Below are positions 9,133 through 31,180 of a stretch of 32,000 nucleotides of DNA, piece after piece; position 1 is the first letter of the stretch; every line of letters begins with the position of its first letter. The notes under the pieces were generated by a model, which made no database searches, was not told the origin of the DNA, and saw only the letters and a list, made by a program, of their open reading frames with translations. Made by a program: the position numbers and the translations under genes. Origin of the DNA: Gammaproteobacteria bacterium (lineage in GTDB: Bacteria; Pseudomonadota; Gammaproteobacteria; S012-40); contig JAOUMY010000003.1 in assembly GCA_029881255.1 (NCBI GenBank), positions 26,732 through 58,731 on the forward strand. Reading direction: 5' to 3'.

Positions 9133-9366
9133 TGATGGACTCAGATGTTCAAAAAGCCTTGGATTACCTCGGGACTACTAAGGGTTAGCCGCATGTTTAG
9201 ACAAAGTATTTCCGTTTCTTCCCAGTTTGTCGGCACTTACAGCTGTTTGCTTGAACGTATTGCGGAAAAAATATGCCTGTATGCTTGTGTTAAATGGTTT
9301 TTGCCCAAGCATTAAACTCAGCGGGTGTAGACGTTTTTAAGGCAGGTATCAACAGGCGGGAAAGTG

Positions 9367-10404
9367 CTACAAACTTACACTACTTTTTAGCGGATAACGC
9401 TCCATCAAATAGCAAAGACAATCTTGCCGTATAACTTTGGCATCCAGGGTCAACATCGACGGCATCATTCCCTTGGCGAAACGGATTTCACTATTTTCAA
9501 AACGAAAGTATTCGGCTTCGACTTCCTCGCCGTTTTCGTCGATGACTTCAAAATGCACAGTTCCCCCCGCGCGCGTTCGGCCGATCAAAGTGTCAGGCGC
9601 GAGTTCGCGGAAATTCAGATGGTCTAGTTCAGGAAGAAACTGAATATCCGTCTCTTCTTCACCAAAACCAAAACCAAAACTGTATTGCTCCGGAACTTTC
9701 ACTGTGGCAACGGTGTGATAAAGATCGATATCGTGTGAAGCAACCGGGTGCTCAGGAATTTCATGTAAATGCATCAGGGCGGAAAGATATTCACTGGCGT
9801 GCGCATATCCAAGTTCATCACCGGCGCGCCCACACTCTACCGTCACGCTGGGGCACAGTTCGGCCATTGCCATTGATTGCACGCCATGAGGACGAGTGAA
9901 ATAGACCACGGTGCGATTAAACAATGTCGCGAGATGAAAAAAACGATGGTCGAGGCGATTGACGCAGGCGTAATGCGGATTCAAACCGGTGTTATTGTGA
10001 AAGTCGACACTGGCAAACAATTTTTGCGCGCGGGCGTAGTGCATCACATCACACACTAAACTATGTTCAGGTGAGTTTTCGCAATCCTCCCCCCCCAACC
10101 ACACGCGGTTGTAATCCAGTTGATCATCGAGACGACGCATACCTTTGGCGGCAGCGGCAACATTACCGACAAAGAGTATTAATCCTTTGGGCAGAGTCTT
10201 TTCCTGTTGTTGCCGAAGAAATCGTTGCACGGCTTGTAAACCCACGTCTTCATTACCGTGTAACAACACCGACGCAAACAGATTTTCCGGCAGCTTTCCA
10301 CGCAGATGGATCAGACTTGGGCCGGGCAAAATCTTGTATAAATCGGCCGCGCTACTCTCCAGAAACCCAGCGGGCAAAGACTCAAATATCGACAATTCGT
10401 TCAT
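9367..10404 (-). CDS. Succinylglutamate desuccinylase/aspartoacylase (AstE/AspA, M14-like) family zinc deacylase
   Basis: The N-terminal LFASVLLHGNEDVG (H-x-x-E zinc motif) and overall pattern are typical of the AstE/AspA family. I chose the ATG at 10404 (MNELSIF), which forms an ATGA overlap with the upstream stop. The track start at 10413 is a GTG. Confidence 0.75.
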   Translation of the reverse strand: MNELSIFESLPAGFLESSAADLYKILPGPSLIHLRGKLPENLFASVLLHGNEDVGLQAVQRFLRQQQEKTLPKGLILFVGNVAAAAKGMRRLDDQLDYNRVWLGGEDCENSPEHSLVCDVMHYARAQKLFASVDFHNNTGLNPHYACVNRLDHRFFHLATLFNRTVVYFTRPHGVQSMAMAELCPSVTVECGRAGDELGYAHASEYLSALMHLHEIPEHPVASHDIDLYHTVATVKVPEQYSFGFGFGEEETDIQFLPELDHLNFRELAPDTLIGRTRAGGTVHFEVIDENGEEVEAEYFRFENSEIRFAKGMMPSMLTLDAKVIRQDCLCYLMERYPLKSSVSL

Positions 10405-11834
10405 ACCAACCACTCGTGTACCGGTTTACCGGAGTTTTGCGCCTGATAATAGGCGTGTGTCAGCGCGACCATATCGGCGCTGCGTTTTTCGACAAATTCT
10501 CGCTGCCATTGCGCGCCTGTCATACCACTCTCGGCGCGCGCGCGTATGATATCGAGATAAAACCGGCTGTCCTGTTCATCGACTTGCAAGACACGCAAAC
10601 CTTGCATTGCATCTTCAAGCAGTCGATCCAGGATTAAATTTTTCAGTGAACCACGCTTACCGTCTAACCATTGATTGGTCGCGCGCAATCCCAGGCGTGC
10701 GGCTTCGTAAAAATTATCCCGTGCCACGCTAAACGGCAAAAGCGTTTCCGGCGCGATATCGCTATTGGCCAGCGTCTCCTGCAAACCGTAGAAGAAGGCA
10801 GCATTGGCCATTTCATCAACTATCGTTGGCCCCGCAGCAATCACTCGATGCTCAATGCGTAAGTGTGTCTGGCCGTTTTTTTCAAAACCGATCAGGGGAC
10901 GATTCCAGCGCCAGATAGTACCGTTGTGCAAACGCAGATACGGCAGTCGCGCGGCATCGTCATCGAGTTTAACCGGCAATAGTATCGGAAAATGATTGAG
11001 GTTTTCCTGGAAACATTCGAATACCGAATGCTGGACATAGCCACTGCCAAAACCTACCCGTTTGATCGGCCCACTAGCGGCGTCACCATAACCACCACTT
11101 TCAACCGAACTCTCAAACAAAGGTATACGCGTTTCTTCCCATAGACTGCGCCCAAACAAAAAGGGTGAATTCGCGCCAAGCGCAACGGTCGCCGCCGAGG
11201 CAATCGTGGCGGCGTTTAAATAGCGTTTGGATGCCCTGGCCGGAATCTGTCGATGCAATTGAAACGAGGTCGCCGCCGACTCCAGCATCACATCATTGTG
11301 CCGCGAAATCAGATGCTCGCGACCATTGATATCCAGATGCAGCGGCTTGCCCTTGCGCGCCAACATCACCTGTTCATTCAAGGCGCGATAGCGATTCAAC
11401 GGCGACATATTTTCCAGGGTAAGATCGTCGTCCTGCAGTGTCGCCAATATGCCGACCATGAGTATGCGATCATTTTGACGATCGGCGATTTGCGCGCATT
11501 CCTGCCAGTGTTGTTCCAGTTCCTGATGCATGCGCATCAATCCTTTTCCACTGAGCAACTGCGGACAGACATTGAGTTCGAAATTGAATCGCGACAGTTC
11601 CGGCGCGATGACCTCTTTGGGTAACTCGTTTAATAAAAGTGCATTATCGGGAGAGGGTGTGGCGTCTTGAGCGATTAACCACGCCTCTTGCTCCAGGCCG
11701 CCGACGGCCTGATCGACGCAGAAATCATTATCCTCAAATTGCTGTTTGAGTCGCTGGGTCTCTGCCAGCAAATGCTGCGCATAGTTCTGGTAGTCTTCTT
11801 CGGAAAACTGGCTGGTGAGTATCTCTTCGCCCAT
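10401..11834 (-). CDS. Glutamate-cysteine ligase family 2 (GCS2/YbdK-like) carboxylate-amine ligase, long form
   Basis: 477 aa. GLEQEAWLI, FELNVCP, ATSFQLHRQI, GANSPFLFG and LRIEHRVIAAGPT blocks resemble the GCS2 fold. It starts 7 nt after the Sel1 gene stop, and its own stop overlaps the next gene's start. Confidence 0.7.
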   Translation of the reverse strand: MGEEILTSQFSEEDYQNYAQHLLAETQRLKQQFEDNDFCVDQAVGGLEQEAWLIAQDATPSPDNALLLNELPKEVIAPELSRFNFELNVCPQLLSGKGLMRMHQELEQHWQECAQIADRQNDRILMVGILATLQDDDLTLENMSPLNRYRALNEQVMLARKGKPLHLDINGREHLISRHNDVMLESAATSFQLHRQIPARASKRYLNAATIASAATVALGANSPFLFGRSLWEETRIPLFESSVESGGYGDAASGPIKRVGFGSGYVQHSVFECFQENLNHFPILLPVKLDDDAARLPYLRLHNGTIWRWNRPLIGFEKNGQTHLRIEHRVIAAGPTIVDEMANAAFFYGLQETLANSDIAPETLLPFSVARDNFYEAARLGLRATNQWLDGKRGSLKNLILDRLLEDAMQGLRVLQVDEQDSRFYLDIIRARAESGMTGAQWQREFVEKRSADMVALTHAYYQAQNSGKPVHEWLV

Positions 11835-11841
11835 TCTAATC

Positions 11842-12468
11842 TCAGTTGTCTGTCATCGATGCCAAGGCAGATTTGGCGGCGTCCACGTCCTGGCTCGCCG
11901 CTTTTTGCAGCCATTGCTTTGCTCCTTGCAAATCCCGTTCAGTTCCACGCCCGTCGAGCATTAATTTGGCGAGATTGTATTGGGCAAAGCGATAGCCCAG
12001 TTCCGCCGAGCGGCGATAATAATGATAGGCCTCGGCGAGATTGACGCTCACCCCCAGGCCTTGTTCGTATAGAACACCAAGATTATTGAGTGCAATTGGA
12101 TGTTGCGCCTGCGCGGCCTGTTCATACCAGCGTCGCGCCTGGGCGAGATCCGCATCGACACCCAAACCTGCCTGCAACATCCAGCCGATATTGGCCTGCG
12201 CATCGGCATTGCCCTGCTCCGCCAGCGGTCGCCAAAGTTTCATGGCCTGTTGATAGTTACCGAAGAAATAGGCGTTCTCTCCCGATTTGTAGACCTGGCG
12301 CTGATCCGGGCGCAATTCCTCTTTACCCTGTCCGAAACCACGGGATACGACTTTTTTCGACCAATCCAGGGGAGGATCTTGTTTCTCTTCCTGTTCTGGA
12401 GCCGCCGCAACCACAACAGACGTGACCAGGAACAGACATAAAAATTTGACTACGACACGAATATGCAT
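11842..12468 (-). CDS. Secreted Sel1-repeat (TPR-like) protein
   Basis: Signal peptide MHIRVVVKFLCLFLVTSVVVAAAP. At least four Sel1 repeats (GNADAQANIGWMLQAGLGV, AQHPIALNNLGVLYEQGLGV, LGYRFAQYNLAKLMLDGRG...). Confidence 0.85.
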   Translation of the reverse strand: MHIRVVVKFLCLFLVTSVVVAAAPEQEEKQDPPLDWSKKVVSRGFGQGKEELRPDQRQVYKSGENAYFFGNYQQAMKLWRPLAEQGNADAQANIGWMLQAGLGVDADLAQARRWYEQAAQAQHPIALNNLGVLYEQGLGVSVNLAEAYHYYRRSAELGYRFAQYNLAKLMLDGRGTERDLQGAKQWLQKAASQDVDAAKSALASMTDN

Positions 12469-12646
12469 CTTTTACGGATCAAATAGTTGGCCAGAAAACG
12501 TAGAAAAATAAAGACGCAGAATACCATTGCGCCCAGAGAAACTGAACGATTGAGCGCGATTGATTTTTGAGCAAGGGCGCCGGCTATGATAGGATTCGCC
12601 GACCAAATGATTCAAAAGTGCTTGATACACGCCGGGGGGATACTCG

Positions 12647-12781
12647 ATGAGCGAGAAAGAAATGATTTTTTTGTTCTTGATCAGCCTGTGCGTAATGGCC
12701 TATAGCCATCTTCCCGGCGAGCCCACAACTCCTGTCCTGGCCTCCGCAGTGGCCATACAAGACGGCAATACTTCCCAGTAA
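12647..12781 (+). CDS. Possible 44-aa small membrane protein (below the ORF-track cutoff)
   Basis: ATG at 12647 preceded by GGGGGA at 6-nt spacing. Translation MSEKEMIFLFLISLCVMAYSHLPGEPTTPVLASAVAIQDGNTSQ has one hydrophobic helix. It lies in the 436-bp gap between fliK and the Sel1 operon. No other support. Confidence 0.2.
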   Translation: MSEKEMIFLFLISLCVMAYSHLPGEPTTPVLASAVAIQDGNTSQ

Positions 12782-12904
12782 ACACGTTTGCGCGCACCCG
12801 TCATCGACGATGCCTCTGACGGTAAACCCCTGGTGATTTTGGTTAACTCATCGGATATGCGCCGGGCACACTCATCATGTCTTGTCGACATAAGGCAAAC
12901 CGCC

Positions 12905-14452
12905 CTATGCGTAGTAGTCAACCAGGTTATCGGTGCTTAAACCTCTCATTTTTCCACTCGATTCGCTTACGACATCGTCTTCCCCGTTGTCGCCACCAGA
13001 TCCAGGAAAAATCGGTTTACCCAGACGTCCTTCCTGACCGTGCGCACCATCGTGCTGGCGTTGGGCAAATTGCTGAGTCGAGACATCCACATTGCCGAGA
13101 GACAAACCGCTTTCCGACAACATATCGCGCAGACGTGGCATCGCCGTTTCTATCGCCTCACGCACATTATTGTGCTGCGCCGTAAATTGAATAGACGCAT
13201 GTTCCTGCGACATCTTGATCTTGATGTTCACTCGACCCATCTCCGGAGGGTCTAGTCTTAGCTCAGCGGTTTGCACGCCATTTTTCACCAGAAAATTGAT
13301 GCGCTTGCTAAACACCGCACCCCATTCCTCGCTTTCTAATGGCGTGTTCATCACATAGGACGGCGTTCCCGTGGCAGACAGGGGACGCACACCGGCGCTG
13401 GCGCTATTGGTGCTACCCGCCCCTCTTTCCGCGCCACCAATCAGGCTCATCTTTTCCGTCAACTGATCAAACAATTCAGCCGCGGACTGCTGTTTCTGCT
13501 GCGCATTGCGTGCCTCGACGATGGTCTCGAAGCGGGTACTATTGCGTTCGAGTTGGCGCAAAGTCTCCTGAACCAGATGTTCTGATTCTTCTTCGCTGGC
13601 AAGTTCATCTGCTGAGACAAGCTGTTTTTCCGAGGGCTTTTCACGCTCGCCACTTTTGAGGTGTTGCGGTATCTGATCCGCTCTGACCGCACCACGACGG
13701 GCCAATTCAGCCGCAGTTTCTTCGATATCTTCCGCCAGGTCTTCAACCTCTACATCCGCCTGTGCAACCATGTTCACAACCTCCTGTGGCAATTCCACTA
13801 CCTCTTCAGTAGCGGTGTCATCGGAGGTTTCGGAAACCTCGGCGACCAGCGCCTCCAATGTTGTGGTGGGATCAGTTTCTTCTTCGCCACCGACTATCAG
13901 ATCTTCCAGTTCGGGCAACAGGGAAGACAGATCATCAATGGATTCTTCTGTGGTCAGCTCGGGGAGCTCGCCAGCCTTCAATTTATCTTCCACCATTTGG
14001 CGAAAGAGTTCGGCTAGCATCGCGTGTTTTTCTGAGGATTGTGTTTGTCCATGCTCGGCCTGCGCCGGCAAGGCCTTCTCATCATCAGCCTTTTCTTCCA
14101 TGCGTTGCGCAGCCTGTTGTGGCCCCTGGCCGGATTGTTCATCCTTTTCGCTCTGCCCCTGTGCTGGCTTGGTCTCGACCTTGTCTGCCACAGTTTGCTG
14201 ATCGGCATTTTCCTGAGAACGGGAAGCGGCGTTGTTTTGTTCATTGCGTGTCGCCGGTGTGTCGTTCTTGCTGCTGCGCTCGCTTGCCTGAGAGGTTTTC
14301 GACGCCGGAGTCTGTTGTTCCTGCTTGCGCATCTCGGCAGCAAACCGATCACCGGACTGTTTGCCCTGACCAGCGCCCATGCCGGCGGCACCGACGCCGC
14401 TCTGACTCAAGCTGCCCTGATCCAGGAATATATTGGCCATTGCATCCATCAT
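12905..14452 (-). CDS. fliK: Flagellar hook-length control protein
   Basis: Low-complexity Q/E/A-rich N-terminal two-thirds. The conserved C-terminal Flg_hook domain is AELRLDPPEMGRVNIKIKMSQEHASIQFTAQHNNVREAIETAMPRLRDMLSESGLSLGNVDVS. It follows fliJ. RBS GAGGA. Confidence 0.9.
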   Translation of the reverse strand: MMDAMANIFLDQGSLSQSGVGAAGMGAGQGKQSGDRFAAEMRKQEQQTPASKTSQASERSSKNDTPATRNEQNNAASRSQENADQQTVADKVETKPAQGQSEKDEQSGQGPQQAAQRMEEKADDEKALPAQAEHGQTQSSEKHAMLAELFRQMVEDKLKAGELPELTTEESIDDLSSLLPELEDLIVGGEEETDPTTTLEALVAEVSETSDDTATEEVVELPQEVVNMVAQADVEVEDLAEDIEETAAELARRGAVRADQIPQHLKSGEREKPSEKQLVSADELASEEESEHLVQETLRQLERNSTRFETIVEARNAQQKQQSAAELFDQLTEKMSLIGGAERGAGSTNSASAGVRPLSATGTPSYVMNTPLESEEWGAVFSKRINFLVKNGVQTAELRLDPPEMGRVNIKIKMSQEHASIQFTAQHNNVREAIETAMPRLRDMLSESGLSLGNVDVSTQQFAQRQHDGAHGQEGRLGKPIFPGSGGDNGEDDVVSESSGKMRGLSTDNLVDYYA

Positions 14453-14487: not shown

Positions 14488-14503
14488 AGCAAGTGGGGTG
14501 CCA
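14488..14503 (-). promoter_or_regulatory. Sigma-54 (-24/-12) promoter for fliK
   Basis: The minus strand reads TGGCACcccacTTGCT, an exact match to TGGCAC-N5-TTGCW. It sits 36 nt upstream of the fliK ATG, leaving a leader of about 25 nt that contains the SD. Confidence 0.8.
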
Positions 14504-20611: not shown

Positions 20612-21991
20612 TTAAAAATTGCCGTAGGCGCTGGGGACTTCGATACCGTCTTCGCGCATGCGCGCCAGTTTGTAGCGCAAGGTGCGCTGACTGACGCCGA
20701 GTTTTTCTGCCGCAGTTTTGCGGCTACCGTTGGACGCCTTTAAGGCCTCCAATATCAAAACGTGTTCTCTGTCGCGCAGACTGTCACCGAGTTGCCCTTG
20801 CGAATTTTCGTCGTCTGTTTCTATGGGCCTTGGCGCGCTTGCACTGCTGGGCGAGCTAGTATTCATCGACGAAGGTTCAAACATGATTTGTTCATCGTCG
20901 ATGCGTTGATTGACCTGCAAAATCAGCGCACGCTGGGCGACGTTGTCCAGTTCACGCACGTTTCCTGGCCAGCTATGCCCCATCAGTTTTTGCTGTGCAG
21001 CATCGCTGAGTTCTGGCACTGGTCCACCACTGCGCGTATGCCGACGCAGTAAAAATTGCATCAATGGCACCACGTCTTGTTTGCGATCACGCAGCGGCGG
21101 TAAATGAATAGGAAAGACATTGAGGCGGTAATACAAGTCTTCACGAAAACGTCCGTTGGCGACTTCCTTTTTCATGTCGCGGTTGGTGGTGGCGAGTACG
21201 CGCACATCCAGGGGAATAAGTTTATTTCCGCCTAGACGTTCGACTTCGCGCTCCTGTAACACACGCAAGAGTTTGGCTTGCAGGCCGATGTCCATCTCGG
21301 AAATTTCATCGAGTAATAGTGTGCCGCCATTGGCCAGTTCAAACTTACCCGGGCTGGATTTATATGCGCCGGTAAACGCGCCTTTTTCATATCCGAACAA
21401 CATCGCTTCGAGCATGTTTTCCGGAATCGCGGCGCAATTGAGCGCCACAAACGGACCTTTATGCCGCGGCGACATTTGATGAATCTGATGGGCAAAGACT
21501 TCTTTACCGGTACCGCTCTCACCAGAAATCAACACCGTTGCTTCGCTGTCGGCGACCTTGGCGACGAGTGCCAAAACCTCTTTTGTTTTTGGATCTTCGG
21601 CAATCATGTCGCCGTCGACAGTCTCCTGCCCCAACACATGATTGGCAACCATATTCACCAGCACTTCGGCCTCGAAAGGCTTAACCAAATAATCAATCGC
21701 GCCATCGTGCATGGCTTCGACGGCTTTCTGGATAGTGCCGTAGGCAGTCATCAACACCGTCGGAATTTCCGGATGTAGCTCGCGCATTTTTTTCAGCAGT
21801 GTGTGACCATCCATGCCGTCCATTTGCACATCGCTAATCACCATGCCGACGTTATCGTTTTCCAGACACTCCAGCGCCGCGTGACCGTTGTCTGCTTCGA
21901 GCACGTTATAACCTGCGATCTGCAAAGTGTCGGTGAGCGCCTCGCGCAAACTCGCATCGTCTTCTACGATCAGTACGCTGGTGTGGCTCAT
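20612..21991 (-). CDS. flrC: Sigma-54-dependent flagellar response regulator (FlrC/FleR type)
   Basis: Receiver domain (VLIVEDD...ISDVQMDGMDG), AAA+ domain with GESGTGKE and the GAFTGA loop (EKGAFTGA), and a C-terminal Fis-type HTH (AAEKLGVSQRTLRYKL). ATGA overlap with flrB. Confidence 0.92.
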   Translation of the reverse strand: MSHTSVLIVEDDASLREALTDTLQIAGYNVLEADNGHAALECLENDNVGMVISDVQMDGMDGHTLLKKMRELHPEIPTVLMTAYGTIQKAVEAMHDGAIDYLVKPFEAEVLVNMVANHVLGQETVDGDMIAEDPKTKEVLALVAKVADSEATVLISGESGTGKEVFAHQIHQMSPRHKGPFVALNCAAIPENMLEAMLFGYEKGAFTGAYKSSPGKFELANGGTLLLDEISEMDIGLQAKLLRVLQEREVERLGGNKLIPLDVRVLATTNRDMKKEVANGRFREDLYYRLNVFPIHLPPLRDRKQDVVPLMQFLLRRHTRSGGPVPELSDAAQQKLMGHSWPGNVRELDNVAQRALILQVNQRIDDEQIMFEPSSMNTSSPSSASAPRPIETDDENSQGQLGDSLRDREHVLILEALKASNGSRKTAAEKLGVSQRTLRYKLARMREDGIEVPSAYGNF

Positions 21992-23235
21992 GCTTGACTC
22001 CTCTTGGATTCGGGGGCGGGTGTGCTGTTCATAATCGGCAGGCGCATAACAAAAGTCGTTCCTTGTTCATCGCTTTTACCCAACCACAGGCTGCCGCCAT
22101 GGGCCTGGACGACGTTCTGGGCGACGGCCAGGCCCAGGCCTGTGCCTTTGGACTTGGTGGTAAAAAACGGCTCAAAAATTCGCTTCTGATCTTCGGCAGA
22201 AATGCCGGGACCGTTGTCGGCGATATAAATATCTACCGAGGGCAAACTCTGTGTTTGTCTCGGTAAATCAGTGACGATGTGAATCTGTGCCTGTTCGCCA
22301 CAGGCCTGTAGCGCATTGGAAACCAGGTTTTGCATTACGCTCAACAAGGCATCGCGATTGGCGCGCAACAGGATCTCTTGTTGCGGCGGCTGGAGGTGTA
22401 ACATCGCACCGGCCTCACTCACCTGCGCTTCCATATATTGGCCAAGGTCGTTGAGTAGCTGTCCGAGGTCGACTTCCTGTAACACCGTCGCCGCGTCACG
22501 GGTGAAGGACAACATATCGTTGACCACTTTTTCCATGTGACGCATGCGATCCAGCGCCTTGTCGGCAAAACGATTGCGATCGGTTTCTTTAATGCCTTGC
22601 TTGGTCAGATTGGAAACATATAACAGTGCCGAGGCCAGCGGTGTGCGTATCTGATGGGCAACCTTGGCACTCATCTCGCCCATGGCGGATAGACGCTTGT
22701 AACGTTCGAGGGCGGTTTGCAGACCGCGAGCTTCGGTGATGTCGTTGAGTAGAATTATCTGCCCCGGCTCGTTACCTAAAGGACAGGTGGAAATCGACAC
22801 CCAACGACCAGCGAGCGTAATCGCTTCCTGACCGGTAAAGGAGCCACCGGATTGCAGAAAACCTTGTTCGACCACATCGCGCCACAGCGCGCCGTCGAGT
22901 TCCATCGCAAGTAATTCGCGCGCAGCTGGATTGGTCTCTTGAATACGGCCGCGGTTATCGATAACCACAACTCCGGCGGGCAGTGCATCCAGTAGATTGC
23001 TGAGACGGGAGGCGAGCCGCGCGTTTTCCGCCAGTTGTTCGCCATGATCGTGTTGCGCGGAATTCAGCTCTTCACTGAGATTGGAGATGTGATCTTCCAG
23101 GGCACGATAAGTCGCCGTGAGCTGATCGGCTACGCCATTAAAAGCGTTAAAAGCCTCTTGCAGCTCTTTGGGATTTGGCTTGCCTGGTTTGGTCTTGGCC
23201 AAGAAATGTGCTCCGATGATTCCGTCTGTTTGCAT
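21988..23235 (-). CDS. flrB: Flagellar sensor histidine kinase (FlrB/FleS type), soluble PAS-HisKA-HATPase
   Basis: PAS-like region (VVVIDNRGRIQETNPAAREL), H-box MSAKVAHQIRTPLAS, N-box LVSNALQA, G-boxes DNGPGI and GTGLGLAV. The start is uncertain: the ATG at 23235 has no SD and lies only ~4 nt after the predicted sigma-54 start site. An in-frame TTG at 23202 has GGAG 8 nt upstream. Confidence 0.9.
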   Translation of the reverse strand: MQTDGIIGAHFLAKTKPGKPNPKELQEAFNAFNGVADQLTATYRALEDHISNLSEELNSAQHDHGEQLAENARLASRLSNLLDALPAGVVVIDNRGRIQETNPAARELLAMELDGALWRDVVEQGFLQSGGSFTGQEAITLAGRWVSISTCPLGNEPGQIILLNDITEARGLQTALERYKRLSAMGEMSAKVAHQIRTPLASALLYVSNLTKQGIKETDRNRFADKALDRMRHMEKVVNDMLSFTRDAATVLQEVDLGQLLNDLGQYMEAQVSEAGAMLHLQPPQQEILLRANRDALLSVMQNLVSNALQACGEQAQIHIVTDLPRQTQSLPSVDIYIADNGPGISAEDQKRIFEPFFTTKSKGTGLGLAVAQNVVQAHGGSLWLGKSDEQGTTFVMRLPIMNSTPAPESKRSQA

Positions 23236-23361
23236 AACGGAATGCTTTGAGCAAGAAGCATGCCCCTGTTTAGGGCTTTAAATTCAGAGAGTTAAAAAGG
23301 CTAAATCAGACCCCGTCAAGGCTTCGTCACTTTTTTGCCGCGGATTCGGGGAATCCATACA
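23109..23361 (-). repeat. Direct repeat copy A (flrB codons 1-42 plus 126 nt of upstream region)
   Basis: It aligns without indels to 29196-29448 at a constant offset of 6087 bp. By hand count there are 17 mismatches in 253 positions. Boundaries are accurate to about 5 nt. Confidence 0.9.
23250..23265 (-). promoter_or_regulatory. Sigma-54 (-24/-12) promoter of flrB (copy A)
   Basis: The minus strand reads GGGCATgcttcTTGCT (GG-N10-GC spacing exact; consensus TGGCAC-N5-TTGCW). The -12 C is at 23251, 15 nt before the annotated ATG. Confidence 0.7.
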
Positions 23362-23370
23362 GCAGCAGAA

Positions 23371-26300
23371 TCACAAAGGATTTACCGTCAGCGTAAAATT
23401 AGCGCTGTCAGAAAACGAGTTCTTTTCGTCTACGCGGATATATAACGAGCTACCGCTGGAGCTTGCGATACAGGAGTCGTTCCACGTTCCTGCATACGCA
23501 ACATCACAAACCGTACGTGCATAGTTATCGTCGTCGTACACCCAGACATCTACGTCGTCGGTCTGATTCGAAACCTCAATCGAATATAAACCTCCAGCGA
23601 TTAAGCCATCGACGCGATAATATCGGTATTCGTCTTTTACTATCGTGTCATCAAAGGGAGTACTTAGCGATAGCGCTTGTGGAGTTACACTAAATTCGAG
23701 AATTTCCAGGACGAAATCTGAACCCGAATAGCTTATGCTCGCATCGACCACTATATATGCACTTGTACTCTGAGCGACAGCTACACAGTCATCTCCTGTG
23801 CCGAAGTAGTAGGGTTCGCAAAGTACCGAACTATAATCTGCGTCCGAATAGACACTAAGATATGTTCCCGAGTCAGTCATGCTCGCCAAGTTAAAATAGT
23901 AGGCCGTTCCAATTGCAAGACCGGTTACCTCATAATAGACCTTGCCTTTATGGGCGCTGCCAGAAGTATCGGGAAACTCTGACAAATCCATTACAATCGG
24001 ACTTGGGGCCGGTTCTATAGTAATTGAAAATTCACCACCGTTATCGCTGTAGAGCGTGTCAACCAGCAAGAACATCGAACTTCCACTGGCAGTCAAATCG
24101 CACTCGAAATGGGTAAAGCAATAAGTGCCGCTAAACGAACCCTCACTATACAATGAAAGAGAAATCGAAGAAGCCGTCGTATTTGAAATCGTCGCCCTAT
24201 ATGTAACGCCAGAGGATAAACCAGTGATTTCGAACAAACCATAGTTGACACCAATTGAACCGCGCAGCGGAAAATCCTCTGTATCGTATGCAACAACTTG
24301 CGGTGTAACTGCTGTAATCGTTACCGTATCTGTTTGACTACTCAATGTGCCATCGTTGACGATGAGACTAAAAACGTAGTCACCAATGAGGTCTGCTTGA
24401 AATTGGAAATACTTGGCGCCAGGATCGACGATAGTCGCGTTACTACCGGCCGGAGAAGAAATAAGTGTCCAGTTGTAATTCAGCGCGTCATAATTAACAT
24501 CGTAACTCTGATAGCCAAAGACAAAGGGTGAAGAGCCAACTGCTACCGCGTGATCAGCTCCTGCGTATGCGACAGGCGCGACATTTCCGCTACCTGCAGT
24601 AATTATGACAGTATCGACAGCACTATCGGATACTCCATCGTTCACAACTAAATTTATAACATAGCTGCCGTCAACATCAGCTACAAATCCCGACGATACG
24701 CTAGTAGGCGTATCAAGCAAACTAAGACCACTTGTCGCAGGTACTGAATTTATAGACCAGGAGTAACTCAGGTTGTCTCCGTTATTATCCTTGCTAGCGA
24801 CCCCTGAAAGCTCGACATATGAACCGCTTAAAACCGTTTGATCACGACCAGCGTCAGCAACTGGAGGTACATTTTGCGCGGCAGTAATCACTACTTGGCT
24901 TAATAGACTCGTCAGCACCCCGTCGCTTACCGATAACGATATTACATAGCTTCCATCTACATCGGGAGTAAAACTAGGAATCCTCGAAAGTGGTTCATTC
25001 AGCATACTTAGTGTGCTTCCAGTAGGCACAGAAACGATATTCCAGGAATAAGTAGATATAGAACCATCCTTGTCTGTACTTAGTGATCCGTCGAGACCAA
25101 CCAGGGATCCGGTTAAGACAGATCTATCATATCCCGCATGTGCAACAGGCGGCATATTTGCGCCCGCACTAATAGTTACCGTGGCTGGGCTACTACTAAA
25201 ATATCCATCGTTCACCACCAGTGATATCACATAGTATCCTTCAACATCTGCAACGAAAGTTGGATTAACAACAGTAGGATCAGACAATGCCGTAACACTG
25301 CTTCCGACCGGTACAGACACAATCGACCACAGGTAAGTAATTGGAGAACCGTCTGGGTCGATGCTTAAGCTAGCATTGAGATAAGCCGCATTTCCGACGA
25401 TTAACGATCGTCTAGGACCTGCGTGCGCATTCGGCGGACTATTAGGTGCACCGGCCGTAATCGTTACAGTTGAACTGCTACTTTGTAACTGTCCATCGCT
25501 AACGACCAAGGAAAAAACATAGTCTCCATCCACGTCGGCCGTAAAGCTTGGGGAAACGACGCTGTTGCTCGACAGAGTCGAAATACTGCCTGTTGGAAGC
25601 GATACTGTCGTCCAAGTGTACGAGAGAAGTTGTCCATTGGGATCATAACTTGCACTTCCATCCAGCGTCACCACGCTTCCAGTGGTAACATATTTTGAGC
25701 TTCCCGCACTGGAAACCGGCGGCGCATCAACCGCCGCAAGTACTGATACTGTCGCTGGGCTGCTGTTGTCCGTACCATCATTAACAGTGAGTGAGAAAAT
25801 ATATGTGCCTTCAACATCTGGGGTAAAACTCGGACTAACTGTAGCGGCATTGTTCAATGAAATCACGTTACTGGAAGCAGGTACGGAGACCACGTACCAG
25901 CTATACGTTATGAAGTCGTTGTTTGCATCCGAGCTAGCGCTACCGTCCAGTGTAACTAGCCTACCCAGGATTGCAGTTTGGTTTTCTCCTGCGTGGGCAA
26001 TCGGGACAGCCTGGAATGCGACTGATACTAAAACCTCGTCAGCGGCGCTTTCAAGGTTTCCGTCGTTCACCACCAATGTTGCGCGATACACACCAACTAC
26101 ATCGGCAACGAAACTAGGTCTCGCAGCCGTAGCGTCAGATAAACTTGCGGAACTTCCGTCTGGCGCGACCAACGTCCAAAGATAAGTGAGCATGTCACTA
26201 TCAAAATCCGAACTAAGAGACCCGTCGAGCGTAACCTTATCACCGGGTTTTGCTGACGAATCTCTACCCGCGTTTGCAACAGGAGCAGAATTTTTTGTAC

Positions 26301-26658
26301 TTGCTACAATCACCACTTCATCGTCAGCAAACTTATCAAGTTCATCGTGCACGACGAGGGAAACTCGATATACACCATCCAAGTCTGCAATAAATGAGGG
26401 CGCAACAGTGGTCGGATTCGATAAAGTTGCCGCGCTGTTTTCTGGAACGTCAACAAATTTCCAGCTATAGGTAATACGACTTCCCTCTGGATCCACGCTC
26501 AAGCTACCATCAAGCTTAACAAGCGATCCGGTAGCAATATTTTGATCCGTACCGGCATGGACGACAGGAGCCTGATTATCAAGTGGGAATTCATTTAAGC
26601 AAGAGGAAAGTAGAAGAATAGGCGAGATAGTGATCAGCTTTGGAAAATAAAAACGCAT
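23371..26658 (-). CDS. Large surface lipoprotein: 8 tandem PKD-like Ig domains followed by 3 PPC-like (pre-peptidase C-terminal type) domains
   Basis: Signal peptide with lipobox-like ILLLSSC (Cys20). Eight ~95-aa repeats follow the pattern (N)xAPVAxAGxDxxVxxGSxVxLDGSxSxDxxGxxLxYxWxxVSxPxGSxxxLSxxTxxxPxFxADVxGxYVxxLVVxDG. Three ~100-aa C-terminal domains follow, each with a conserved Cys pair (TYCFTHFEC, VLCEPYYFGTGDDC, TVCDVAYAGTWNDSC). RBS AGAGGAAAG. Confidence 0.85.
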   Translation of the reverse strand: MRFYFPKLITISPILLLSSCLNEFPLDNQAPVVHAGTDQNIATGSLVKLDGSLSVDPEGSRITYSWKFVDVPENSAATLSNPTTVAPSFIADLDGVYRVSLVVHDELDKFADDEVVIVASTKNSAPVANAGRDSSAKPGDKVTLDGSLSSDFDSDMLTYLWTLVAPDGSSASLSDATAARPSFVADVVGVYRATLVVNDGNLESAADEVLVSVAFQAVPIAHAGENQTAILGRLVTLDGSASSDANNDFITYSWYVVSVPASSNVISLNNAATVSPSFTPDVEGTYIFSLTVNDGTDNSSPATVSVLAAVDAPPVSSAGSSKYVTTGSVVTLDGSASYDPNGQLLSYTWTTVSLPTGSISTLSSNSVVSPSFTADVDGDYVFSLVVSDGQLQSSSSTVTITAGAPNSPPNAHAGPRRSLIVGNAAYLNASLSIDPDGSPITYLWSIVSVPVGSSVTALSDPTVVNPTFVADVEGYYVISLVVNDGYFSSSPATVTISAGANMPPVAHAGYDRSVLTGSLVGLDGSLSTDKDGSISTYSWNIVSVPTGSTLSMLNEPLSRIPSFTPDVDGSYVISLSVSDGVLTSLLSQVVITAAQNVPPVADAGRDQTVLSGSYVELSGVASKDNNGDNLSYSWSINSVPATSGLSLLDTPTSVSSGFVADVDGSYVINLVVNDGVSDSAVDTVIITAGSGNVAPVAYAGADHAVAVGSSPFVFGYQSYDVNYDALNYNWTLISSPAGSNATIVDPGAKYFQFQADLIGDYVFSLIVNDGTLSSQTDTVTITAVTPQVVAYDTEDFPLRGSIGVNYGLFEITGLSSGVTYRATISNTTASSISLSLYSEGSFSGTYCFTHFECDLTASGSSMFLLVDTLYSDNGGEFSITIEPAPSPIVMDLSEFPDTSGSAHKGKVYYEVTGLAIGTAYYFNLASMTDSGTYLSVYSDADYSSVLCEPYYFGTGDDCVAVAQSTSAYIVVDASISYSGSDFVLEILEFSVTPQALSLSTPFDDTIVKDEYRYYRVDGLIAGGLYSIEVSNQTDDVDVWVYDDDNYARTVCDVAYAGTWNDSCIASSSGSSLYIRVDEKNSFSDSANFTLTVNPL
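24298..26574 (-). repeat. Tandem array of 8 diverged ~285-nt coding repeats (PKD-like domains)
   Basis: The repeats start at about aa 29, 123, 215, 310, 404, 500, 595 and 690 of the 1095-aa protein. They are diverged at the DNA level and are protein-domain repeats, not CRISPR or satellite. Confidence 0.8.
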
Positions 26659-27042
26659 CTAAACTTTCCTCTTTGGTATTTGATACATCTATCGGACTAG
26701 CCAAACGCGCATCTATAACAATTTTTGCCAACAAAACCATAATTTTCCGATAAACCGACAGAACAACTCCAACTCTTTCATCAAGTTTCAAGCAATCCTC
26801 TCCCTATAACTGGCATATGGCACAAAAAAACACGCATTACTTTCTGCACTATTGGATTTATTCCCAAACAATTTCTCGATCTAAATATTTGTAAACGTTC
26901 TATACGAATACTACAAGACTAGTTAACACAGACAACATACCAATTACATCGTCGTCATCGAACAACGCCGATCCTAAACTGCCACGCACCTACTTAAAGA
27001 TAGAAACACGTCCGACGATATACATAGCAATATGCGCCACTC

Positions 27043-28440
27043 ATGAGAACCGCCAATTTGAAAAATATAATCTATAAATTAGCTCTAACAACGAATTTAC
27101 TTTTCCTATTTTCGTGCGTAACAACACCTGTGGAACACACATTAGTACCGGAAGGACACGAAAAGTCTGGACTACTTGTTGGCGAGATAATTTCAACCAG
27201 TATTCCAAATTTTAAATACGCAAGTGTCGTTATCGACGGTGTAGAACGAGGAAATTCTCGATTCGGCGGAAAAATAAAATTTTTACATTCACCTGGAAAT
27301 CATACGATAAATTCTGTAAACGTTCCTATACCCGGAACCAACTTATATAATCGCTACCCCATTAATCTAGCATTCACTATTAACTCCAAAAGAGTCACCA
27401 ATTTCGGATTGCTAAATATTGAAATACAAAGCAAAACTAATCAGTTTTTTATTTGGTATTTGGACAACAATGAAGAAATGAAATATTTTCTTAACAACGC
27501 CTACCCAAATGAATCGACAAAGATTAACTTGACCGAAATATCTCTGATTCCGAACAAGTACGTTAAAGGAAATAAGATAAATAATATTCGTAATCATATC
27601 ACCCGCAATACGCTAATTTCTCGTATGGATGACAAAACTAGACCGCTAAACGTCAAAGGATATGTACTAGGCCCTATCGGAAGCATTGCGAGATATGATT
27701 TATCCAACAAGAACTCTCCTTTGGAAACCCCTATTGACATAGATACGACGCTTGATATGAGCAATTGCAAGTCGCATGAAAAAATTGTCGCATGTCTATT
27801 CCCCCCGAGTAAACTATTCGTCGTAGATGGAAAAAAGGCATACAAACGCAGTTTGCCTGACGGCATAGTAGCCGACACTATCCGGATTCTAGACAAACAA
27901 AAATTAATGCTCATCGATAAAGCTGGGTCTATATTTGTTTCCCGAAACGCCGGTGTTTCCTGGACTACGGCACATAAAAGTACGGTAAGTCGCCAGCCTC
28001 AGTTCGCGGCGAACGAGTATCTTAACAACTATGGCTCTGAATCCTATGGTGTATATCTCGGTCCCGACAAATATTACGTTTACGCAAATTCGCGTGAAAA
28101 AAGCGGAAATTTCGGCATTTGGGAAAGTGACAGCAAATTGAAATCTTTTTCGGCTATTTCGCTACCGGAATCTATACGTGATATACCAAGTATTTTGGAG
28201 TCTAACGACACCCTTGTAATCAGCCCACGTATTGAGAATCTCTTTAACGAGGAATTCTACATACGCACTAGCGACGGAAAAACTTGGCGAACTGTCGATA
28301 CGCCTGGAAGACGGTGTGGCGCCCTGAAAGTTAGCGAAAGTGACCCGAATACCATGAGCCTGATTTGTTCCGGTAGAACATGGAAAACAACAGACGGCGC
28401 CAAAACCTGGAAGGCAAGCAACAAGTTGGATAAAGGCTAA
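27043..28440 (+). CDS. Lipoprotein with a very AT-rich N-terminal half and a BNR/Asp-box (beta-propeller-like) C-terminal half
   Basis: Lipobox LLFLFSC|VTTP. Asp-box-like motifs SRNAGVSWTT, TSDGKTWRTV and TTDGAKTWKA. The N-terminal ~200 aa are N/K/I-rich. No convincing SD before the ATG. Confidence 0.7.
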   Translation: MRTANLKNIIYKLALTTNLLFLFSCVTTPVEHTLVPEGHEKSGLLVGEIISTSIPNFKYASVVIDGVERGNSRFGGKIKFLHSPGNHTINSVNVPIPGTNLYNRYPINLAFTINSKRVTNFGLLNIEIQSKTNQFFIWYLDNNEEMKYFLNNAYPNESTKINLTEISLIPNKYVKGNKINNIRNHITRNTLISRMDDKTRPLNVKGYVLGPIGSIARYDLSNKNSPLETPIDIDTTLDMSNCKSHEKIVACLFPPSKLFVVDGKKAYKRSLPDGIVADTIRILDKQKLMLIDKAGSIFVSRNAGVSWTTAHKSTVSRQPQFAANEYLNNYGSESYGVYLGPDKYYVYANSREKSGNFGIWESDSKLKSFSAISLPESIRDIPSILESNDTLVISPRIENLFNEEFYIRTSDGKTWRTVDTPGRRCGALKVSESDPNTMSLICSGRTWKTTDGAKTWKASNKLDKG

Positions 28441-28480
28441 GCCTTGTAAGCAAACGTCAAATCATCATGAGAAGAAGTCG

Positions 28481-29107
28481 ATGACAAAAACATACAAACT
28501 GCTACTACTAAGTGTTTTTTTATTCCCATTTAACCAGACACAAGCAAGCAGCCTTGATCTCAGCGGTTACCTCAGCCTAGCACTTGGCCTTGGCGGAGAC
28601 AGATTGTTGGAAATCGGTTATACCGATGGGACGAAAGGAACAACTTACGCCGGAAATGGAGCTTCCGTTATAGTCGGCTCAACTCTTCGAAATAACTATT
28701 TTGAAACTAGAGCGGGAATCGGCTTTATGTCTGTTAGACAAACTGGCGACAATGGCGGCGCAGGGTTCAGGCGGTGGGTGGCAGAAGGAACCGGACTCAT
28801 TCGACTGGGCCGGGAAAAAAAGCATATGATTGGCGGTGGTGTGGTTTATCACATAAAACCCGTTCTAGAATGCGAATTCACTGGCCTGTGCCAAGACTAC
28901 ACGTATTTCAAAAATGCGCTCGGATACACTGTCGAATACAACTATGTATTCGACGGTGGCAATCCAAATTACATGGATACCTATGCAATCGCCTTGCTGT
29001 TTTTTACGCGTGTACAAATCGTCAAGTACCAGATTAATGATTCCACGAGCAACTATACCGCTGATGGCAGCGGTATAAGTATGGGCGTGGCAGTTACGTG
29101 GTATTGA
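28481..29107 (+). CDS. Small outer-membrane beta-barrel protein candidate
   Basis: Signal peptide MTKTYKLLLLSVFLFPFNQTQA|SS. Alternating hydrophobic/glycine-rich strands. C-terminus ends GVAVTWY (aromatic terminal residue). It starts 40 nt after the preceding gene, so it is probably co-transcribed. Confidence 0.55.
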   Translation: MTKTYKLLLLSVFLFPFNQTQASSLDLSGYLSLALGLGGDRLLEIGYTDGTKGTTYAGNGASVIVGSTLRNNYFETRAGIGFMSVRQTGDNGGAGFRRWVAEGTGLIRLGREKKHMIGGGVVYHIKPVLECEFTGLCQDYTYFKNALGYTVEYNYVFDGGNPNYMDTYAIALLFFTRVQIVKYQINDSTSNYTADGSGISMGVAVTWY

Positions 29108-29121
29108 TGAGAGAGTATACG

Positions 29122-29322
29122 TCACCTAAACGTCTTTAGTCCTAAGGCCAATATGATCTTTAGGTCACAAAGACTCATCATACTCGTGTCGCGACAAGTC
29201 GCCGTAAGCTGATCGGCTACGCCATTAAAAGCGTTAAAAGCCTCTTGCAGCTCTTTGGGATTTGGCTTGCCTGGTTTGGTCTTGGCCAAGAAATGTGCTC
29301 CGCTGGTTCCGTCTGTTTGCAT
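29122..29322 (-). pseudogene. Orphan 5' fragment of flrB (42 homologous codons plus 24 unrelated codons, then stop)
   Basis: MQTDGTSGAHFLAKTKPGKPNPKELQEAFNAFNGVADQLTAT matches FlrB residues 1-42 with 2 substitutions (II to TS). Homology ends at about 29196 and the frame runs on to a stop at 29122. Confidence 0.85.
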
Positions 29323-29448
29323 AACGGAATGCTTTGAGCAAGAAGCATGCCCCAGAATTGGGCATTGAAATCAGCGACTTAAAAAGCCTAAATCAGACCC
29401 CGTCAAGGGTTCGACACTTTTTTGCCGCCGATTCGGGGATTCCATACA
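29196..29448 (-). repeat. Direct repeat copy B (flrB' fragment plus upstream region)
   Basis: See copy A. Copy B ends exactly at the stem-loop that overlaps the leuA stop codon. Confidence 0.9.
29337..29352 (-). promoter_or_regulatory. Sigma-54 promoter copy B (orphan duplicate of the flrB promoter)
   Basis: Its GGGCATgcttcTTGCT is identical to copy A. The 30 nt upstream of the ATG are 100% identical in the two copies. Confidence 0.6.
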
Positions 29449-29469
29449 CCGGCTGACAAACTCAGCCGG
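29449..29469 (-). terminator. Stem-loop overlapping the leuA stop codon (weak terminator candidate)
   Basis: CCGGCTGA-CAAAC-TCAGCCGG, a perfect 8-bp stem. On the minus strand it is followed by TGTATGG, which is a poor T-tract. Confidence 0.35.
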
Positions 29470-31180
29470 TAATAGTACTCAACTGCGGTTTGTTTGCAGA
29501 CTTAGCAGCAATGCGCACATCCACCCCGGCGCGTATAAAGTGACGATTGATCGCCGACAACAAGGCCTTCAACGATGCACTAATCGTGTCCTGATCAAAG
29601 GCCACGCCGATGATGCGTTGGCCATCGATATTGGCGTGCACATAGGCGACCGCGACTGCATCGGTGCCCTCTTCCATCGCATGTTCGCTATAGTCAACGA
29701 TACTGATTTGTTGCCCGCAATGTTGTTGCCAGGCATCGACGAAGGCGGCCATGGTGCCCTCACCTTCACCGTGCATGGTGTGCTCACCCTGTTGATTACT
29801 AATCCGCGCTTCAATCACGTCTCGACCGTTCTTGTCGATGTGGAAGCCGTGCAAACTCAACGGCGACTGATCGTGTACATAGTGTTCGCGAAAGATTTCA
29901 TAGATCTGTGCGCTATCGACTTCGCCGCTTTGCGTCTCACTGACTTTCTGAACATGGGTCGCCAGCTCGGTCTGTACCCAACGGGGCAATTGCAAACCAA
30001 AATCACGCTCCATGACGAAGGCAACGCCGCCCTTACCCGATTGGCTATTGACGCGTATCACAGCCTGGTAGTCGCGCCCCAAGTCTTTGGGGTCGATAGG
30101 CAGATAGGCCACCTGCCAATGCTCGTCGTCTCTTTGTTTGTGCAGACATTTGCGTATCGCGTCCTGATGACTGCCGGAAAACGCGGTATATACCAGCTCG
30201 CCTATCCACGGGTGACGCGGATTTAAAGGGATATTGGTGCACTCGGTAACGACGTGGATAATCTCGTCCGGGTTAGACAAATCCAGTTGCGGATCAATAC
30301 CCTGGCTATACAGATTCATGGCCATGGTGACCACGTCCATATTGCCGGTACGCTCGCCATTACCCAATAAAGTCCCTTCGACACGATCGGCACCGGCCAT
30401 GATCGCCAGCTCGGCAGAGGCCACCGCACAACCTCTATCGTTATGGGTGTGTACCGAAAGCACGATGCTGTCGCGACGCTTCACGCGCGTAGCAAAATAT
30501 TCGACCTGGTCGGCAAACACATTCGGCGTGGCGACTTCGACGGTAGACGGCAGATTGATGATGCATTTGTGTTGCGGCGTCGGTTGCCACACATCGGTGA
30601 CCGCGTCGCAGACTTCCACGGCGTAATCCATCTCGGTACTGGTAAAACTCTCGGGGGAATATTCAAAGGTCCAATCCACATTCGGATATTTTTTCGCTTC
30701 GTCTTGTACCCACGTTGCGCCATTCACTGCAATCGCCTTTATGCCCTCGCGGTCCATTCCGAAAACACGCTCGCGTTGAATCGTAGAGGTGGAGTTATAC
30801 ACGTGCACAATAGCGCGCTTGATACCGATCAGCGATTCAAACGTACGCTGAATGAGAGCCTCACGCGCCTGCACCAATACCTGTACCGTGACGTCATCGG
30901 GAATCTGGTTTTCCTCAATCAGCCAGCGCACAAAATCATAATCGTGCTGACTGGCCGACGGGAAACCTACCTCGATTTGTTTAAAACCCAGCTTGACCAA
31001 CAAGGCCCACAGGCGGCGCTTCTGTGTTACCGTCATCGGTTCGAGTAGGGCCTGGTTACCATCGCGTAAATCCACGCTGGCCCACACCGGTGCCTGCTCG
31101 ATGACTCGGGTCGGCCATTGCCGATTCGCCAGATTTACGCCCGTCGCCGGGCGGTATTTACTGTGATTAAACTGCTTCAT
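29462..31180 (-). CDS. leuA: 2-isopropylmalate synthase, long (LeuA type 2) form
   Basis: [13 protein letters not shown], the HTHNDRG metal-binding motif, and a C-terminal LeuA dimerisation/regulatory domain. I chose the start [11 protein letters not shown] (ATG at 31180, AAGGA 7 nt upstream) rather than the track start at 31225. Confidence 0.93.

Follow-up and report, generated by a model that had tools for sequence, protein, structure and literature searches.

Introduction

The collagen-binding domains of the clostridial collagenases ColG and ColH fall within the PPC superfamily as one of its subclasses; joined to PKD-like domains, they make up the segment with which these enzymes bind collagen and are recruited to insoluble substrate (PMC4356367). 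Other such PPC-type segments include the C-terminal segment of a Grimontia collagenase (PMC6168687) and that of Pseudoalteromonas E495 (PMC3327674). Here we analyze a stretch of 32,000 nucleotides (hereafter the window) from a gammaproteobacterial genome assembly (GCA_029881255.1; contig JAOUMY010000003.1, positions 26,732 to 58,731 of the forward strand), in which three genes for exported proteins lie between leuA and the sensor kinase gene flrB. They encode a large lipoprotein built from the same two domain types (the giant), a second lipoprotein (gene 2), and a candidate outer-membrane barrel (gene 3). An earlier note on this DNA had taken them for a three-gene envelope module. Our favored interpretation, held with some reserve, is that the block is a lineage-specific insert carrying three unrelated, independently evolving accessory envelope genes, which do not make up a conserved functional system.

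The giant shares with clostridial ColG and ColH the order of its parts, PKD-like sandwiches (s2) followed by C-terminal PPC/collagen-binding sandwiches (s3), with a fold similarity (template modeling score, TM) of about 0.7. It differs from them in having neither an M9 nor any other catalytic module, in the number of its domains (eight plus three, compared with one to two plus one to two in the ColG/ColH segment), and in being anchored by an N-terminal lipid rather than secreted. Each of its PPC-like domains also contains one cysteine pair, unlike those of ColG and ColH, with which sequence identity is 14-18%; despite the likeness, the ligand of the giant need not be collagen. Secreted metalloproteases of Vibrio and other marine bacteria (e.g. 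vEP, whose C-terminal domain is PDB entry 2luw) also carry C-terminal substrate-binding sandwiches, but in these proteins the PPC domain sits behind the protease and is often cleaved off, whereas in the giant three copies end a non-enzymatic lipoprotein. The eight PKD repeats match the K319L-like PKD family (PF22352; KIAA0319L and bacterial PKD-repeat surface proteins), with 6nz0 as the best PDB match. In the giant this domain type stands in a bacterial lipoprotein context, and the repeats are uninformative as to a specific ligand.

Three genes share an insert but not a distribution

The 5.8-kb block is a true insert, situated between leuA and flrB and present in a single copy in the source genome. 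It is bracketed by a 265-nt direct repeat, 92% identical and with a spacing of 6087 nt, that encloses exactly the three genes (Table 1). Copy 1 starts 10 nt past the stop codon of the giant and copy 2 starts 6 nt past that of leuA; what is repeated is the sequence upstream of flrB, including a sigma-54-type element (GGGCAT-N5-TTGCT), together with the 5' end of the gene. The upstream flank comprises a long-form leuA and an Lrp-type regulator gene. A perfect 9-bp stem (ACCGGCTGA ... TCAGCCGGT) without a T-run spans the leuA stop directly before copy 2 (29456-29480, minus strand). An Rfam search of 22900-29600 gave no match.

Two familiar origins for such a block were considered and set aside. 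An integrase-borne genomic island is at odds with borders that carry no recombinase or tRNA gene and consist of a repeat of host promoter and gene sequence; no match to the integrase family PF00589 was found anywhere on contig C33, and no tRNA was found in the window. A foreign island of low guanine-plus-cytosine (GC) content fails as a description of the whole block, in that the giant (46.9%) and gene 3 (46.1%) lie near the value for the genome as a whole (47.4%), low values being confined to gene 2 (40.1%, the 2nd percentile) and the spacer, with high values in the flagellar genes alongside and in leuA (~54% for flrB and leuA).

Searches of genome samples for the gene 2 family recovered it from none of 15 relatives within the bacterial family and from one of 25 within the class. 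It was present in one of 400 other genomes of the class and one of 400 of the phylum, that is, in two of ~800 other genomes in total. Four other gene 2 contexts could be compared (in G040, in G676, and on one gammaproteobacterial and one betaproteobacterial contig from metagenome-assembled genomes, MAGs); their neighbors all differ, and none of the four has a gene 3 relative or a PKD/PPC protein beside gene 2. Relatives of gene 3 are solitary, lying beside unrelated housekeeping genes in varied contexts. Because the three genes occur together in no other genome searched, we regard them as ordinary accessory surface genes and not as a new system; the three-gene module of the earlier note, tempting as it is, is not conserved in the genomes searched, an outcome that the note itself had named as refuting it. 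Their heterogeneous composition, their differing neighbors, and the solitary state of gene 3 relatives further support their independence.

At the G040 locus (C1:1134000-1153999, 8635-13749), the gene 2 homologue is situated between genes for a 194-residue lipoprotein and a 234-residue protein without a Pfam match. It adjoins TPR and AAA_22 genes similar to those for MSHA-pilus biogenesis, an arrangement not seen in the other three contexts. The neighbors were considered as remote gene 3 relatives and rejected, hhalign being negative.

The same distribution bears on a lineage-specific three-part envelope system, in which the gene 3 barrel and the gene 2 lipoprotein would anchor the giant or export it to the surface. 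Dedicated outer-membrane partners serve some surface lipoproteins in this way. Such a system would account for the clustering of three exported products in one insert and for the close spacing of genes 2 and 3 on one strand, and a stalk of 11 domains, presumably longer than the periplasm is wide, would need a surface route. It is difficult to reconcile with the lack of co-occurrence in the ~800 genomes and the four other contexts, with PKD/PPC lipoproteins of relatives that have no such partners, with solitary gene 3 relatives, and with the differing composition of the three genes. We therefore consider a three-part system rather unlikely.

Several points nevertheless weigh against our interpretation of three independent genes. 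Co-occurrence was assessed on genome samples and not exhaustively, and neither an empty site nor a donor locus was found in a genome collection that holds no genomes of the same genus. Genes 2 and 3, just 40 nt apart on the plus strand and presumably co-transcribed, could still cooperate in this organism. Moreover, a 20-nt inverted repeat (26977-26996 / 29076-29095; 90% complementary) brackets exactly these two genes, with its arms 47 nt upstream of the gene 2 ATG and 12 nt before the gene 3 stop; by a rough estimate, ~0.04 such pairs are expected by chance in 7.5 kb. This repeat hints that genes 2 and 3 moved as a unit, and it may mark them as a separately acquired or invertible unit. Our interpretation also presumes that the giant is exposed at the surface, and the single-sequence AlphaFold model of gene 2 (predicted local distance difference test, pLDDT, 38) was unusable.

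The layout of the locus as given in the earlier note, including the three open reading frames (ORFs), the gaps, and the AT-rich spacer, was confirmed (Table 1), with 135 nt between the stop codon of the giant and the annotated flrB ATG. Reading of the N-termini likewise confirmed signal peptides on all three products and lipoboxes on two. Conserved cysteine pairs in all three proteins fit an extracytoplasmic location.

Table 1. Coordinates of the insert, its genes and the flanking repeat copies within the window
Feature	Position	Strand	Description
Giant lipoprotein gene (P0001)	23371..26658	-	1095 aa; lipobox signal, 8 K319L-type PKD, 3 PPC/collagen-binding-domain-like repeats
PPC-like C-terminal domains of the giant (n=3)	23374..24297	-	residues 788-885, 886-989, 990-1095; one Cys pair each
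Divergent spacer, giant/gene 2	26659..27042		384 nt, 38.3% GC; presumed promoters of both genes
Gene 2 (P0002)	27043..28440	+	465 aa; rare unnamed lipoprotein family
Gene 3 (P0003)	28481..29107	+	208 aa; small outer-membrane beta-barrel candidate
Direct-repeat copy 1	23105..23369	-	flrB promoter region called functional, and first 131 nt of flrB
Direct-repeat copy 2	29192..29456	-	orphan flrB promoter and 5' stub; 92% identical to copy 1
flrB (sensor kinase)	21988..23235	-	heads flrBC-fliE-K block downstream of insert

The giant is a predicted lipid-anchored array without a catalytic domain

The giant is preceded by a ribosome-binding site rated good (GAGGAA), and its N-terminal signal, read from the sequence, ends in LLLSSC with the lipobox cysteine at residue 20. 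Residues 28-787 comprise eight repeats of ~95 residues that start with A/P-P-V-x-x-A-G and are mirrored in the DNA by a 285-nt periodicity. The Pfam K319L-like_PKD model matches eight stretches of the protein with 283.9 bits (cut-off 27), and PKD_4 (PF18911) reaches 192.5 bits. Residues 788-1095 form three repeats of ~100 residues that recognize one another in an internal hidden Markov model search with expectation values (E) of 1e-39 to 1e-48. All cysteines besides Cys20 fall into pairs within them, one pair per repeat (847/853, 947/958, and 1051/1063). Since the signal, the eight PKD domains, and the three PPC-like domains take up all 1095 residues, the giant has no catalytic domain, and a secreted protease or glycosidase with a PKD/PPC tail was ruled out. 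Its strongest NCBIfam match, to an M36-peptidase model, covers model positions 1187-1562 only (the PKD tail) and reaches 335 bits against a cut-off of 1500.

The identity of the C-terminal repeats was approached at the level of both sequence and fold. The Pfam model of the PPC domain (PF04151) does not match residues 788-1095, even at E<=10, and matches three of 21 related repeats of other proteins (best E 5.2e-5). In a PDB sequence search, the sole full-length match was 2luw, a metalloprotease domain of 101 residues (E 0.003 and 0.018). Repeat 2 was folded with AlphaFold 2 from an alignment of seven rows, all from the source genome, giving a model with a pLDDT of 89.9. Foldseek matched this model to PDB structures with TM 0.65-0.74 and E ~1e-5 to 2e-4, namely the ColG collagen-binding domain (1nqd, 1nqj, 2o8o, and 4hpk) as well as 5sv5, a PPC domain from a Bacillus collagenase, and the enterotoxin of C. 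perfringens (C-terminal domain). On the strength of this model, repeat 2 can be assigned confidently to the PPC/collagen-binding-domain sandwich fold. The earlier label "PPC-like" thus fails for the window's own copies at the Pfam sequence level and holds at the level of fold for the modeled repeat. An fn3 identity was discounted because the matches span only a ~30-residue stretch (Y-x-I-x-G-L-x-P-G-T-x-Y) and the fold search favors PPC/collagen-binding domains.

Given this PKD content and PPC fold, we read the giant as an expanded, enzyme-less, lipid-anchored version of the recruitment segment of ColG and ColH. It would be a non-catalytic stalk, attached to the outer membrane through its N-terminal lipid and corresponding to the PKD and collagen-binding segment that follows the catalytic module in clostridial or Vibrio-type secreted proteases, and it may serve to attach the cell or a partner to some insoluble polymer or particle. 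The earlier note had counted eight PKD repeats and three C-terminal domains, each with a cysteine pair, and had seen no catalytic domain, all of which is borne out. Its suggestion of an adhesin or stalk rather than an enzyme remains the best reading, judging by the non-catalytic array of PKD and PPC-type domains.

Lipoproteins with PKD/PPC arrays are common in this bacterial family and occupy unrelated loci. A 1105-residue protein of relative G005 contains five PKD and five PPC-like domains, and relatives G008 and G011 each encode a protein with seven PPC-like domains. The source genome itself encodes a paralogue on contig C21 (82080-86744), a lipoprotein of 1555 residues that matches DUF6252 and carries four PPC-like domains of the type found in the giant; its ORF extends to the end of the contig. 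A lipobox is present in all four PKD/PPC proteins that are readable from the N-terminus, the G011 ORF being cut by the contig start.

Gene 2 belongs to a rare and unnamed lipoprotein family

The signal of the gene 2 product ends in LFLFSC, with the lipobox cysteine, again read from the sequence, at residue 25. In an alignment of 40 family members this cysteine is nearly invariant (consensus L-x-G-C) and Cys425 and Cys442 are invariant; the latter two form one of the cysteine pairs of the protein, the other being 242/251. The public gene model (P0004) is only 320 residues long, starting at Met146, and loses both the lipoprotein signal and the N-terminal domain. Because family members align end to end and Cys25 is kept, the 465-residue form is the right model, to which the public one should be extended. 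The first 145 codons (27043-27477) have a GC content of 34.7%, below that of every long ORF of the genome.

An exhaustive HMMER search of 1.8 billion proteins clustered at 50% identity recovered 137 cluster representatives, 69 of them at E<=1e-10; most are 430-480 residues long, are 21-26% identical to the gene 2 product, and align over the full length. Other searches yielded little: a word-indexed search for homologues returned only the protein itself (in its 320-residue version), a profile search with the family added just one named MAG protein, and locus scans found only two further relatives. Nothing was found in a related-locus search from the single protein, and the plasmid collection contained no relative. 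Neither Pfam nor NCBIfam has a name for the family.

Pfam matches among the 40 members are to PF02012 BNR (14 members), Sortilin-Vps10 (10), and DUF2846 (3). The N-terminal domain is beta-rich, and is DUF2846-like in the last three of these relatives. The C-terminal half of the gene 2 product contains three Asp-box-like motifs, at residues 300, 410, and 449, and Sortilin-Vps10 (PF15902) matches the protein with 23.8 bits, below its cut-off of 33. The family profile gives weak PDB matches (E 4e-7 to 7e-4), including GH74 (2cn2, E 4e-7) and Ycf48 (E ~5e-4).

These features liken gene 2 to the Asp-box propellers (Ycf48/HCF136, GH74 xyloglucanases, and sortilin VPS10), to which it is linked by Asp-box-like motifs and weak matches in the C-terminal 260 residues. 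Ycf48 is likewise a lipoprotein, with a propeller that has no enzyme activity. Gene 2 differs in that all its matches fall below curated cut-offs and in having an additional N-terminal beta-rich domain. In the earlier description of a BNR-propeller lipoprotein, the lipobox stands; the propeller, indicated by three Asp-box-like motifs and sub-cut-off matches, is plausible and not established. The product may start with a small beta-sandwich, with a probable Asp-box beta-propeller behind it, and could serve as a ligand-binding or scaffold lipoprotein.

Gene 3 is a candidate small outer-membrane barrel

The gene 3 product has a signal of the signal peptidase I type (TQA/SS), some 8-10 amphipathic alternating strands, a C-terminus (VTWY) with an aromatic last residue, and a cysteine pair (131/137) in a predicted loop. 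Weak relatives of 186-243 residues were recovered from six other genomes, along with one paralogue in the source genome. The family shares G-Y-K, G-G-G-x-T-Y-H, the terminal aromatic residue, and a motif F-S-R-x-P-hydrophobic-D/E (consensus FSRxPIE; FSRIPLD in one relative), and several members share the loop cysteine pair. Gene 3 itself has no Pfam match, and a word-indexed search for homologues returned only the protein itself. Two of eight relatives match PF13505 OMP_b-brl (E 8.7e-8), and the best PDB profile match is a designed transmembrane barrel (E 0.017).

A small outer-membrane barrel belonging to a family of ~200 residues is, from these sequence features, a reasonable reading of gene 3. 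In size, signal peptide, terminal aromatic residue, and amphipathic strands it agrees with the OmpX/OmpW/OmpA-N class of 8-stranded barrels (PF13505), from which it departs in having no Pfam match of its own and in the conserved cysteine pair of the predicted loop. The earlier prediction of a small barrel of 8-12 strands fits the export signal, the strand pattern, and the terminal residue, with support from Pfam confined to the two relatives. Gene 3 would be a stand-alone, porin-like barrel of OmpX/OmpW size.

Relation to the flagellar genes

Downstream of the insert lie flrB, flrC, fliE, fliF, fliG, fliH, fliI, fliJ, and fliK. A flrA-type activator gene is directly upstream of flrB in all seven relatives compared, whereas in the source genome flrA (C33:101597-103063) is 51.6 kb upstream, across an interval that includes leuA and lrp. 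The fliS/fliD/flagellin block (C33:144750-158627) lies ~42 kb beyond flrA; order and strand are preserved throughout. The polar-flagellum cluster has thus been opened by several large intervals, including the one with leuA and lrp, and the 5.8-kb insert came afterwards, as a minor addition where leuA meets flrB. The earlier statement that the block was inserted into the flagellar regulon is thus correct insofar as it is a true insert adjoining flrB; the actual site is the leuA-flrB junction, flrA and flrB having already been parted.

This position raises the possibility of an adhesin wired into flagellar control, either by read-through with or into flrBC or by the orphan sigma-54 promoter of repeat copy 2, 2.7 kb upstream, driving the giant. 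The giant is co-directional with flrB and ends just before the repeat. The only candidates in the gap between them, a hairpin with an A-run behind it and a 5-bp stem encroaching on the -24 box, do not make a canonical intrinsic terminator, so that read-through would be physically possible. Moreover, the orphan promoter is intact and directed toward the giant, through the antisense strand of genes 3 and 2. However, flrB keeps its own sigma-54 element, conserved in six of seven relatives, and read-through is therefore not needed; the giant is itself preceded by AT-rich sequence and a ribosome-binding site rated good; and the arrangement is unique to the source genome, which leaves it with no comparative support. 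We regard coupling of this kind as unlikely. The same holds for a fuller version, in which the duplicated flrB promoter and 5' end would bring a newly acquired, adhesin-like lipoprotein into the FlrA/sigma-54 cascade, either under its control or in series with it, through both orphan promoter and read-through, and gene 2 would found an undescribed family of beta-sandwich and Asp-box propeller proteins; we hold this, too, to be improbable. In the 384-nt spacer there is no sigma-54 match at <=2 mismatches to TGGCAC-N5-TTGC, and inspection by eye finds only a partial sigma-28 -10-like CCGATAA without a -35 element.

The products, one outer-membrane barrel and two lipoproteins encoded beside flrBC-fliE-K, could also be taken for accessory parts of the flagellar envelope, comparable to the ring proteins that sheathed polar flagella have in the outer membrane and periplasm. 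None of them is found beside flrB in seven relatives with the same flagellar genes, nor gene 2 anywhere among the 15 family relatives, and none has Pfam or NCBIfam similarity to flagellar families; a flagellar role is very improbable indeed.

Two further observations concern the flagellar genes themselves. When FlrB proteins of relatives are aligned with the annotated product, the match does not begin until residue 12-30 of the latter; codon 12 of flrB is an in-frame TTG with a GGAG 8 nt upstream, and this TTG, at 23202, is probably the true start. The sole exact TGGCAC-N5-TTGC of the window falls between fliJ and fliK on the minus strand (12905-14452 and 14489-14503), and would fit a separate sigma-54 promoter for fliK.

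Implications

The result is chiefly one of annotation, and the oddity of the locus is the duplicated flrB promoter around the insert. Apart from one unnamed lipoprotein family, the novelty lies in members of kinds already known; the account is correct as description and ordinary in kind. If the giant were in fact joined to the flagellar cascade, attachment and flagellar regulation would be transcriptionally coupled in this lineage. The gene 2 family, with ~137 clusters at 50% identity, has neither a name nor an assigned function, and is of some wider interest. A "hypothetical" protein of 1095 residues can now be described as a predicted lipid-anchored stalk of PKD and PPC/collagen-binding-type domains without an enzyme. 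More generally, lipid-anchored PKD/PPC arrays without a catalytic domain recur in this bacterial family, in which they may be devices for attachment to particles or polymers.

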